From: an uncultured delta proteobacterium
GTDB lineage: Bacteria; Desulfobacterota; BSN033; UBA1163
Length of the DNA stretch: 64,000 nucleotides
Direction: 5' to 3'
Assembly (NCBI GenBank): GCA_963708295.1
Contig: CAVPSJ010000013.1
Location: forward strand, 32,001 to 96,000
The translations under genes and the position numbers were made by a program. The notes under the pieces were generated by a model, which worked only from the letters and a program-made list of their open reading frames with translations, was not told where the DNA came from and searched no databases. Shown one piece after another: positions 865-56,837 of the stretch (the stretch's first letter is position 1; each line of letters starts with the position of its first letter).

Positions 865-875
865 CTCTTTCCTCG

Positions 876-987
876 TTGACCCGTTCGACGGCACTCAGCC
901 TCGTCTTGCAAGGGGGGGACGGAAAGTGCCGCTCAGGGTCAATCCAGAGCAACCCCGGTAGTTATGCCTGGGAGCCGAAGGATTGAC
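876..987. repeat. Structured double-hairpin repeat, copy 1
   Basis: TTGACCC-GTTCGAC-[GGCACT..AGTGCC]-GCTCA-GGGTCAA-TCCAGAGC-[hairpin]-GCCGAA-GGATTGAC; same architecture at 18191 and 56730. Confidence 0.85.
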
Positions 988-17449: not shown

Positions 17450-18364
17450 ATGATGGAAAAGATTCCAGTTTCTGTCTATGTGCTCACGACAAACAATCAT
17501 CGGACGATTGAGCGGTGCCTGAGGAGCCTCTCCTGGGCTCAGGAGCTGGTGGTGATCGACTCCTTCAGCCAGGACGGGACCTTCGATATCTGCAAACGAT
17601 ATGCGGATAAATTATTTCAGAGGACATGGACAGGACATCGCGATCAGTACCAGTATGCCGCCGATCTCACCACGCAGGACTGGATCATGTTTGTGGATGC
17701 CGATGAAGAAATTCCTCCAGAATTAGCGGAGGAGATTCGGAAGGAGCTGAATGGAAAGGGAAAGGATTTGGACGGATATTTTGCTTATCGGCGTACCTAT
17801 TATCTGGGAAGATGGATTCGATACGGAGGATGGTATCCCGATGGTGAGATTCGTCTCTATCGAAAGGAGAAGGGGAGATGGGAAGGGGGCCTTCACGCTA
17901 AATTGGTGGTGAAGGGGAGGGTCGGCGTTTTGAAAAACCAGTATCATCATTATACCTATGGAAACATTTCAGACCAGATTCAGACGATCGACCGGTATTC
18001 TAAAATCGCGGCAGAAGATCTTTTTGGAAGCGGGGAAAAGTTTAGCCTTTTCAACCTTCTCTTTCACCCTCCTTTTCGGTTCATCAAAGAATACCTTCTT
18101 AAGTCAGGATTCCGGGATGGGCTGCCGGGGTTCATCATCGGCGTCTCGACCATGTATTACGTTTTTGTCAAATATGCCAAATTGTGGGAGTTGACCCGTT
18201 CGACAGCGCCCAGCCCATCTTCTGAAGGAAGAGGAGAGACGCGCCACGCAGGGTCGACCCCGAGCCTTCAACCCGATCCCAAGCCGAGGGACAAGTCCCA
18301 GCCTTTAGGCAAGGGGGCCGAAGGGTTGACCATTTCTAAGAAGGAGAAAGAGAATGGCTCCTGA
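17450..18364 (+). CDS. GT2 LPS beta-glycosyltransferase (WaaE/KdtX-like) with repeat-derived C-terminal insertion
   Basis: IDSFSQDGT, FVDADEE, GGWYPD, FRDGLPG, KYAKLWEL followed by 45 residues encoded by repeat copy 2. Confidence 0.9.
   Translation: MMEKIPVSVYVLTTNNHRTIERCLRSLSWAQELVVIDSFSQDGTFDICKRYADKLFQRTWTGHRDQYQYAADLTTQDWIMFVDADEEIPPELAEEIRKELNGKGKDLDGYFAYRRTYYLGRWIRYGGWYPDGEIRLYRKEKGRWEGGLHAKLVVKGRVGVLKNQYHHYTYGNISDQIQTIDRYSKIAAEDLFGSGEKFSLFNLLFHPPFRFIKEYLLKSGFRDGLPGFIIGVSTMYYVFVKYAKLWELTRSTAPSPSSEGRGETRHAGSTPSLQPDPKPRDKSQPLGKGAEGLTISKKEKENGS
18191..18330. repeat. Structured double-hairpin repeat, copy 2 (inside GT2 CDS)
   Basis: TTGACCC-GTTCGAC-[AGCGC..GCGCC]-ACGCA-GGGTCGA-CCCCGAGC-[longer insert]-GCCGAA-GGGTTGAC. 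Confidence 0.85.
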
Positions 18365-56729: not shown

Positions 56730-56837
56730 TTGATACTTCGACGGCGCCAAACCCCATCCTTTGGGACGGGGTCAAAAGCGCCGCTCAGTATCAACCCAAA
56801 CGCCTGGCTTTAGACCGGGGAAAGTCGAAGGGCTGAT
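56730..56837. repeat. Structured double-hairpin repeat, copy 3
   Basis: TTGATAC-TTCGAC-[GGCGC..GCGCC]-GCTCA-GTATCAA-CCCAAAC-[hairpin]-GTCGAA-GGGCTGAT. Confidence 0.85.

Follow-up and report, generated by a model that had tools for sequence, protein, structure and literature searches.

We find that three stretches of the window, the name used here for the whole 64-kb piece of DNA analyzed, are copies of mobile DNA that inserts precisely into its target. As read from sequence comparisons, the repeat generated at the insertion site is the five bases RTCAA, and this target matches the element's own center. We are somewhat inclined to believe that the three stretches represent a non-autonomous mobile DNA element that would move as single-stranded DNA, use its center as a guide, and depend on a GIY-YIG nuclease as its partner. 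Inspection of the sequence bears out the first-pass annotation, which had proposed a three-copy repeat at 876-987, 18191-18330 and 56730-56837. The copies, and the main parts of copy 1, are listed below with their scores from R1, a covariance model for which 34 copies found in other organisms were used.

876-987, minus strand: copy 1, the whole element with both flanking TTGAC words, 107 nt inserted, 85.8 bits with R1 (sequence)
876-880, plus strand: left TTGAC of copy 1, the target five-mer, single in the empty site (filled versus empty comparison)
983-987, plus strand: right TTGAC of copy 1, the second five-mer (sequence and filled versus empty comparison)
884-935, plus strand: first half of copy 1, with TTCGAC at 884-889, hairpin GGCACT..AGTGCC at 890-930 and GCTCA at 931-935 (sequence and fold)
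939-942, plus strand: central TCAA of copy 1, present in both basal stems and complementary to the flanking TTGA (sequence)
946-979, plus strand: second half of copy 1, an inverted first half, with AGAGC at 946-950, a variable hairpin at 951-973 and GCCGAA at 974-979 (sequence and fold)
18191-18330, minus strand: copy 2, a 135-nt insertion between TTGAC at 18191-18195 and TTGAC at 18326-18330, 58.1 bits with R1
56730-56837, minus strand: copy 3, of the TTGAT/ATCAA subfamily, 77.2 bits with R1

Read on the minus strand, the three window copies have a common plan, TCAA-CCC-TTCGAC-[hairpin]-GCTCA-GGG-TTGA-NNN-TGAGC-[hairpin]-GYCGAA-N'N'N'-TCAA, or, divided more finely, TCAA-CCC-T-TCGAC-[hairpin 1]-GCTC-A-GGG-TTGA-NNN-T-GAGC-[hairpin 2]-GYCGA-A-(N)-N'N'N'-TCAA. 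On the plus strand, each of them reads TTGA(C/T)-NN-(G)TTCGAC-[hairpin]-GCTCA-N'N'-(G/A)TC(A/G)A-NNN-(A/G/A)(G/A)(A/C)GC-[hairpin]-G(C/T)CGAA-N'N'N'-(T/C)TGA. The first half forms a hairpin: its 8-bp basal stem is TCAACCCT/AGGGTTGA, and TCGAC/GCTC makes up its internal loop. An inverted version of the same unit (GAGC/GYCGA loop, 8-bp basal stem) forms the second half, and the central TTGA is common to both; in copy 1, sequence and fold alike agree with the earlier view that the halves are inverted versions of one motif sharing a central TCAA. The ends, CCCTTCGAC..GTCGAA(N)GGG with the five-mer RTCAA on each flank, provide terminal inverted repeats and a repeated target, and the feet of all aligned copies consist of TCAA/TTGA plus CCC, TAC and similar triplets. 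Element size ranges from about 87 to 175 nt. Both distal hairpins are capped by U(G/A)AA-type loops, and both are variable and dispensable: hairpin 2 is absent from some copies, and hairpin 1 is very short in some. In one element, the hairpin 1 slot is filled by an extra module, a 20-nt CCTGCC..GGCAGG palindrome, which is also found beside other elements; its sites are at L002:1501-1600, L006, L181 (near 1010) and several copies in the window's own genome.

Differences in the stems among the window copies are compensated (TTGACCC/GGGTCAA, TTGACCC/GGGTCGA and TTGATAC/GTATCAA for one stem, TCAATCC/GGATTGA and related pairs for the other), which confirms the shared architecture with covarying stems reported at first pass; copy 1 contributes the pair TCAATCC/GGATTGA, and copy 3 the pair TTGATAC/GTATCAA. 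Copy 2 has an extra nested module and a degenerate center, TCGA at 18254-18257, and lies in frame within the 3' end of a family-2 glycosyltransferase (GT2) ORF (17450-18364), which stays open. Copy 3 lies downstream of a GT2/DUF2304 gene and is made up of a left TTGAT (56730-56734), a central ATCAA (56790-56794) and a right CTGAT (56833-56837) in which one base has decayed. A copy in the same place in genome G011 has its hairpin tip compensated.

Several other features are evident in and around the window. At 983-1011, the right TTGAC of copy 1 begins the string TTGACT-N17-TATAGT, which resembles by eye a sigma-70 promoter; the same promoter-like words occur in the empty site of G005, and the target word itself resembles a -35 box. 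Just upstream of copy 1, at 218-404 (L191:5719-5905), is an unrelated repeat of about 185 nt. G003, G006 and G009 have look-alikes of it elsewhere, on other contigs, at about 77-79% identity. Metagenome contig depth is highest over positions 300-433. A third repeat family, of about 150 nt, is represented just outside the window (L191:467-620, or G000:C13:26966-27119) and has at least 19 further copies in the same genome at 82-90% identity, as well as copies in most genomes of the genus.

Evidence of movement comes from sites at which the element is missing. In the window's genome (G000, 4.95 Mb), the copy 1 site reads TTGAC + 107 nt + TTGAC, and in G005 it is empty, cctcgTTGACttgattt. One contig from a public wetland metagenome joins window position 875 to 983, skipping the 107 inserted bases with five shared letters; because it aligns at 85% likeness, this contig probably comes from a relative. 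Another joint, linking 898 to 953, is probably due to a copy located elsewhere. None of the public sequencing runs contained more than a quarter of the sampled words, and the sole RNA run, in which contigs cover the region thinly and in patches, is uninformative about transcription. The copy 2 site is filled in G000 and G003, with TTGAC on both sides; it is empty in G011, G006, G008 and G014, where gggagTTGACgat has one TTGAC and no insert, and in G001, which reads gggagcTGACgat (cTGAC), while G012 has cTGAA. Relatives likewise have empty sites for two neighboring copies, situated just beyond the window. One of these copies lies in frame in a zf-HC2 ORF, giving, with copy 2 in its GT2 ORF, two copies in frame inside genes. 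The first-pass annotation had called the element actively spread and suggested a search for empty orthologous sites. Such sites are indeed found in related species for copies 1 and 2, and together with the equally precise sites of the two neighbors and the metagenome contig lacking exactly the 107 bases, they show that the element has spread.

The target is TTGAC/GTCAA, more generally RTCAA (TTGAY on the other strand), and is found on both sides after insertion. The 5' TCAA and the 3' TCAA are preceded by the same base, whose complement follows the central TTGA. Among the loci listed, which span phyla, this fifth-base rule holds in 83 of 93 cases, a center TTGA-C going with flank G in 52 of 58 and a center TTGA-T with flank A in 31 of 35. 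It is on account of this complementarity across phyla that we take the five-base repeat to be tied to the center. The flank before the site is A-rich, with A at position -2 in 66 of 93 of the loci listed. In three other genomes (G010, G004 and G012; loci L217, L218 and L219), the copy 1 site holds a different insert, of 116 nt, with ends CCCTGTACC..GGTACAGGG and the same TTGAC on both sides. The CCCTGTACC ends do not form a repeat family in the window's genome, where 25 exact 9-mer matches look random.

The family is much larger than the window suggests. The 13-mer TCAACCCTTCGAC (box-1) has 20 exact occurrences in the window's genome, compared with about 0.15 expected arithmetically for a random 13-mer, and 50 matches at one mismatch or fewer, compared with 7 in the shuffled genome. 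R1 detects 27 distinct copies there at E <= 0.01 (28 rows, one locus being matched on both strands), with no further full copy in the window beyond the three. From the excess of the 13-mer over both expectation and shuffle, and from the covariance-model scores, we conclude that the three-copy pattern is far beyond chance. Each of the other 14 genomes in the genus has the 13-mer as well, and so do 6 of the 10 further genera searched within the family. It is all but lacking in 16 relatives at a greater distance, where there are single matches at most. Farther afield, copies of the R1 type number 14 in G043, 24 in G044, 2 in G042 and 7 in G041, a 0.6-Mb assembly labeled Sungbacteria in which all seven are exactly 112 nt long; G041 and G042 are Patescibacteria assemblies, both incomplete. 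An exact 24-base pattern occurs at 116 loci or more in the species-genome collection, in about ten phyla by label. According to the depositors' titles, these include Thermodesulfobacteriota/Syntrophaceae, Omnitrophota, Parcubacteria, Sungbacteria and Planctomycetota (Scalindua, Brocadiaceae), along with Nitrospira, Pseudomonadota, Elusimicrobiales, Myxococcales and Neomarinimicrobiota assemblies. Mis-binning was considered as the cause of this spread and rejected, because the hairpin sequences are lineage-specific and some host contigs are 0.5-3 Mb long. In six Nitrospira-labeled assemblies (L074, L075, L113, L120, L132 and L138), a copy sits at the same conserved locus, behind ..tcgtaagagatgc(c/t)(t/c)cgc; hairpin 1 differs among the assemblies with its pairing intact, and this conservation suggests long retention or host use at that site.

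Base pairing is conserved throughout the family. At 93 of 116 loci among the matches listed, the exact complement of the three bases that come after the central TTGA, joined to TCAA, appears within the next 140 nt; eight different triplets occur. In an alignment fitted to R1 itself (109 rows, 106 distinct sequences), paired cells make up 90.7%, versus 81.0% in shuffles and 24-50% in slid controls. Double-sided changes, counted over the 106 distinct sequences of this model-fitted alignment, number 311, versus 93.5 in shuffles, and the observed value was reached by none of 500 shuffles. Seven of the rows are opposite-strand matches of loci already included, and these are the source of the "compensatory" cells in the first helix. 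The compensatory changes in the larger alignment lend support to the proposal that the element is selected for structure. Among mismatched cells, G·T (165) and A·C (124) are nearly equal, and copies face either way with respect to genes, some of them lying inside ORFs, others behind genes or between divergent ones. These two observations favor a DNA element over a functional RNA, as do the in-frame insertions in the GT2 and zf-HC2 ORFs. Of the "ssDNA/RNA element" originally envisaged, DNA is the favored form. The canonical strand is opposite the G-rich strand in 19 of the 27 copies of the window's genome, six of the 19 being on one contig, a weak hint of strand preference relative to GC skew.

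It might still be argued that the conserved object is a structured RNA, be it regulatory, a terminator or self-cleaving, and that its dispersal is secondary. A secondary structure conserved with covariation, U(G/A)AA-type loops on both distal hairpins, and the six Nitrospira-labeled copies at one locus, whose hairpins have changed yet still pair, would all be in line with such an RNA. We nevertheless deem it highly improbable. Copies occur in every context, and G·T mismatches barely outnumber A·C, as described above. The two halves are reverse complements of each other, an arrangement that conserves DNA sequence and not RNA loop geometry. The folding z-scores of the three window copies are modest (-0.9 to -3.5). 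Moreover, Rfam has no family that matches (the first-pass annotation had named such a match as one that would remove novelty): the 64-kb window gives no match at gathering score, and five loci with consensus-like copies, searched at E up to 10, give a best score of 19.6 bits against a threshold of 49.5. Compared by eye with hammerhead and hairpin-ribozyme cores and integron attC R boxes, the loop letters do not fit.

Smaller relatives of the element are also seen. The window's genome contains stand-alone 19-nt units, N3-TTCGAC-AA-GCTCA-N3', and 38-nt forward-plus-inverted doublets; small units with complementary three-base feet number 78, versus 16 in the shuffled genome. The 38-nt doublet is also seen as an insertion in full elements, where it splits the conserved box between CTG and AGC; the G003 copy has it, and the G000 copy at the same site lacks it. 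The likeness noted earlier between the core and short CTTCGAC..GCTCAG palindromes is borne out by these 19-nt and 38-nt genomic forms; it does not extend to separate units in the window, where the pattern has 2 matches versus 1.43 expected, one of them inside copy 1. At G000:C15:148780-150480, an MFS-type transporter ORF of 380 aa has on either side a copy of a larger repeat (about 200 nt), and both copies include a 38-nt motif doublet.

How the element moves can be considered in light of the genes that do, and do not, accompany it. When the three conserved boxes are chained across the window's genome, no longer copy enclosing a gene is found: spans from box-1 to box-3 are all 87-238 nt or come from two separate elements, and the sole gene enclosed by a forward/inverted motif pair is the above MFS-type ORF, between copies of a different repeat. 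The description of the element as non-autonomous is correct in that no copy carries a gene. We regard a small GIY-YIG nuclease as the best candidate; less probable alternatives are movement by a Y1 enzyme, movement by a DDE transposase, and template switching in which no dedicated enzyme takes part. In the first of these alternatives, the element would be of the IS200/IS605 or REP/RAYT type, one strand being excised and inserted by a Y1 HUH transposase, with RTCAA as cleavage and target sites (the flanking RTCAA as left cleavage/target site, the terminal one as right cleavage site) and TTGAY as guide. Several features are reminiscent of such systems, namely a specific target five-mer found again at the element end, with its complement inside the element, an inverted-doublet layout that recalls REPINs, and the weak strand bias (19/27). 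IS608 selects sites by just such complementarity, according to the available text of two reports (PMC3201880, PMC5934647). The window's genome, in addition, encodes one IS200-type TnpA and seven longer Y1 proteins (313-335 aa). However, these long Y1 genes have different inverted repeats of their own (GGGGACGT..), and fit TIRYT/subclass 2.1, which is described with such repeats in the accessible portion of PMC6006769. The seven (L010-L016) are of four kinds, and matching inverted repeats, GGGGACGTTGGTT or GGGGACGTCCATAAAA for example, bracket most of them. All 50 box-1 matches are more than 5 kb away from the Y1 genes of the window's genome (9 Y1 matches); one weak central-box match, with 3 mismatches, lies about 300 bp upstream of Y1 gene L014. 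Homologues of the long Y1 proteins are found in 38 of 41 relatives, element-free genomes among them, whereas no Y1_Tnp is found in G041 or G042, two incomplete assemblies with 7 and 2 copies, and G044, with 24 copies, has only weak, long Y1 matches. The element also has no GT[AG]G foot, and its two hairpins are mutually inverted, not alike on one strand. We have set aside a Y1/RAYT partner because of its own repeats, the distance to box-1, the homologues in element-free genomes and the absence from G041 and G042, and we judge this type of movement unlikely overall; the HUH transposase gene flanked by copies that was suggested earlier is not found in the window's genome.

An ordinary MITE would have 9-bp terminal inverted repeats (CCCTTCGAC/GTCGAAGGG), move as double-stranded DNA by means of a DDE transposase, and generate a 5-bp target duplication at RTCAA. 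Terminal inverted repeats and a 5-bp direct repeat fit this description, as does the fact that in G010, G004 and G012 the TTGAC site of copy 1 is occupied by another insert, the 116-nt one with CCCTGTACC ends. Left unexplained, though, are the complementarity of the duplicated base to the element's center, the compensatory upkeep of internal stems, and the spread and nesting of 19-nt and 38-nt versions devoid of TCAA ends; nor was a longer, gene-bearing copy with the same ends found in the window's genome. We consider a MITE of this sort quite improbable, and we would say the same of spread by no enzyme at all, in which a polymerase stalled at the hairpins would switch templates between RTCAA microhomologies, the loop letters serving a host protein. 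Copy choice of that kind requires shared letters, five of which are present at each junction, and the match between flanking and terminal five-mers would follow automatically; the window's lineage, furthermore, has yielded no partner gene. Against template switching are loop letters identical across many phyla, which point to one conserved, specific recognition partner, and near-identical subfamilies specific to a genome, such as the seven 112-nt copies in a 0.6-Mb assembly, which point to efficient, directed amplification.

Returning to the GIY-YIG nuclease, we infer that a small single-domain protein of the Ssn/UPF0213 kind is the most likely trans-acting protein, because its gene is bracketed by miniature forward and inverted motifs ("minis") in Patescibacteria and in one Planctomycetales assembly. 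In G042 (L181), a tRNA is followed by a forward motif, a 107-aa GIY-YIG gene, an inverted motif and a 13-nt duplicate of the tRNA 3' end. In G041 (L177), 4 of the 23 minis of the genome are within 1.2 kb of its only small GIY-YIG gene. More broadly, minis occur at 13 of 30 GIY-YIG loci sampled from 121 Patescibacteria genomes (32 matches in 89 kb), the 13 including all six of the closest homologues, and the reversed-sequence control gives none; 20 of 26 motif matches are within 200 nt of the GIY-YIG ORF. In the Planctomycetales-labeled G166, a 400-bp cassette occurs twice with 100% identity; both begin with a two-hairpin element, immediately upstream of the GIY-YIG gene, and one of them has a full TCAA-type copy 60 nt downstream. 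The bracketing motifs range from 19 nt to roughly 100 nt in these Patescibacteria and the one Planctomycetales assembly. At L181 and L240, their forward-then-inverted order is that of the gene-less element; across all loci, orientation is mixed. The proteins are assigned to Pfam GIY-YIG (PF01541), their nearest structures being the UPF0213 entries 1zg2 and 1ywl; a true Ssn enzyme would also be expected to fall in CDD family cd10448. The association is not seen closer to the window. In the window's genome, none of 8 GIY-YIG loci has a model match or mini within 1.5 kb; in its genus, none of 15 has a stem-flanked motif; and in its lineage, 22 GIY-YIG loci give no model match below E 0.3. The element-rich, Syntrophaceae-labeled G167 has one GIY-YIG match with nothing beside it, and among 41 relatives the broad occurrence of GIY-YIG does not follow that of the element. 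We know of no GIY-YIG nuclease that integrates DNA. The earlier suggestion that copies might flank a nuclease gene accordingly holds for Patescibacteria (13/30 loci) and G166, and fails for the window's genome (0/8) and genus (0/15). Similarly, the idea of an unknown trans-acting enzyme is apt for the genus, where no partner is seen, and gives way to a candidate class, GIY-YIG, once other phyla are included.

A possible mechanism is as follows. The element would move as single-stranded DNA, and its central TTGAY would pair with the target RTCAA, acting as a guide or splint, or as microhomology. In the folded form, target RTCAA and the first bases of the element could lie on one continuous stem, so that the junction would look like a nick in a duplex. 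The invariant loop letters TCGAC/GCTC may constitute the recognition site of the trans-acting protein that makes the cuts, and the gene-less two-hairpin element may be the two ends of a GIY-YIG cassette minus the gene. A bolder possibility, which we put forward tentatively and think rather doubtful, is that mobile DNA of a new class is at work here, a single-stranded hairpin element that occurs in many phyla and guides itself: its central five-mer would pair with the target to select, and perhaps splint, the place of insertion, versions of 19 nt to 110 nt would nest in one another, and a single-strand GIY-YIG nuclease of 85-110 residues would drive it in place of a transposase. If that were true, the element would be among the smallest programmable mobile systems known, and Ssn-type nucleases would gain a role in moving DNA; if the center guides insertion, the system could be reprogrammed.

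Small hairpin repeats fill the intergenic space of bacteria, and the insertion rule and enzyme are known for few of them. Here, natural filled and empty sites reveal the exact boundaries, the five-base target and its complementarity to the center, and the same conserved letters recur from Patescibacteria to Planctomycetota and to Nitrospira-labeled and Thermodesulfobacteriota-labeled assemblies. The spread of REP-like elements in the absence of a transposase is a long-standing question that this element makes testable. There are consequences for annotation as well, since copies lengthen ORFs in frame (the glycosyltransferase ORF at 17450-18364 is one example) and some lie directly upstream of gene starts.

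Finally, we compare the element with known systems. Correia/NEMIS, RUP and Rickettsia palindromic elements are about 100-150 nt long, with inverted ends, a preference for intergenic sites and occasional in-frame insertion in genes, and in these respects our element is similar. It differs from such hairpin MITEs in that no matching insertion sequence is found in the window's genome, and in its fixed five-base target tied to the center, its modular nested build and its presence in many phyla. With IS200/IS605 elements and PATEs, it shares hairpin ends and a specific target word of 4-5 bases, repeated at the element end and complementary to sequence inside. Unlike theirs, its hairpins are mutually inverted around one common central putative guide, and its putative cleavage word is inside a stem, not at a distance; TnpA, moreover, does not co-occur with it, as judged from the incomplete assemblies G041 and G042, where none is found. 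REPs and REPINs are likewise dispersed non-coding hairpin repeats, with inverted doublets in both cases. REP families are lineage-specific, whereas the conserved letters of our element recur unchanged in many phyla. In the window's genome the element flanks no RAYT gene, and no Y1 gene is found in G041 or G042. Some REPs are inserted in frame in genes, and a GT[AG]G is present at the 5' foot of the REP hairpin, according to the text at hand of PMC6006769; this foot is lacking in all aligned copies of our element.

Another parallel is offered by the Ssn nucleases, enzymes that cut single-stranded DNA next to a hairpin and whose gene is flanked by hairpin repeats (NTS/SRM), as described in the available text of Chenal et al. 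2025 (PMC11893778). Both kinds of repeat, to go by that text, are short hairpins in tens to hundreds of copies, mostly intergenic, and in some lineages the motifs of our element bracket a single-domain GIY-YIG gene of about 85-110 aa in the order repeat-gene-repeat. The NTS motif given there, CGTCATTCCCGCG..GCGGGAATC (PMC11893778), is unlike that of the element; the published SRM consensus matches none of 109 elements and has 41 matches in the whole window's genome, versus 28 when shuffled. Our element is, in addition, a fused forward-plus-inverted doublet with optional extra hairpins, and its link to GIY-YIG genes is not seen in the window's genus (0/15 loci with a stem-flanked motif). Searches of the literature outside subscription journals and supplements, by motif strings in 8.4 million papers and preprints (unrelated primers only) and by topic, gave no description of the element, and preprint 10.64898/2026.09.22.753630, as far as its available text goes, treats other repeats. 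For our element, the insertion site and five-base repeat are defined; for NTS, none is given in the portion available of PMC11893778. This is, then, a real and apparently undescribed family of dispersed hairpin repeats, possibly of the Ssn type, with an unusually well-defined insertion rule.
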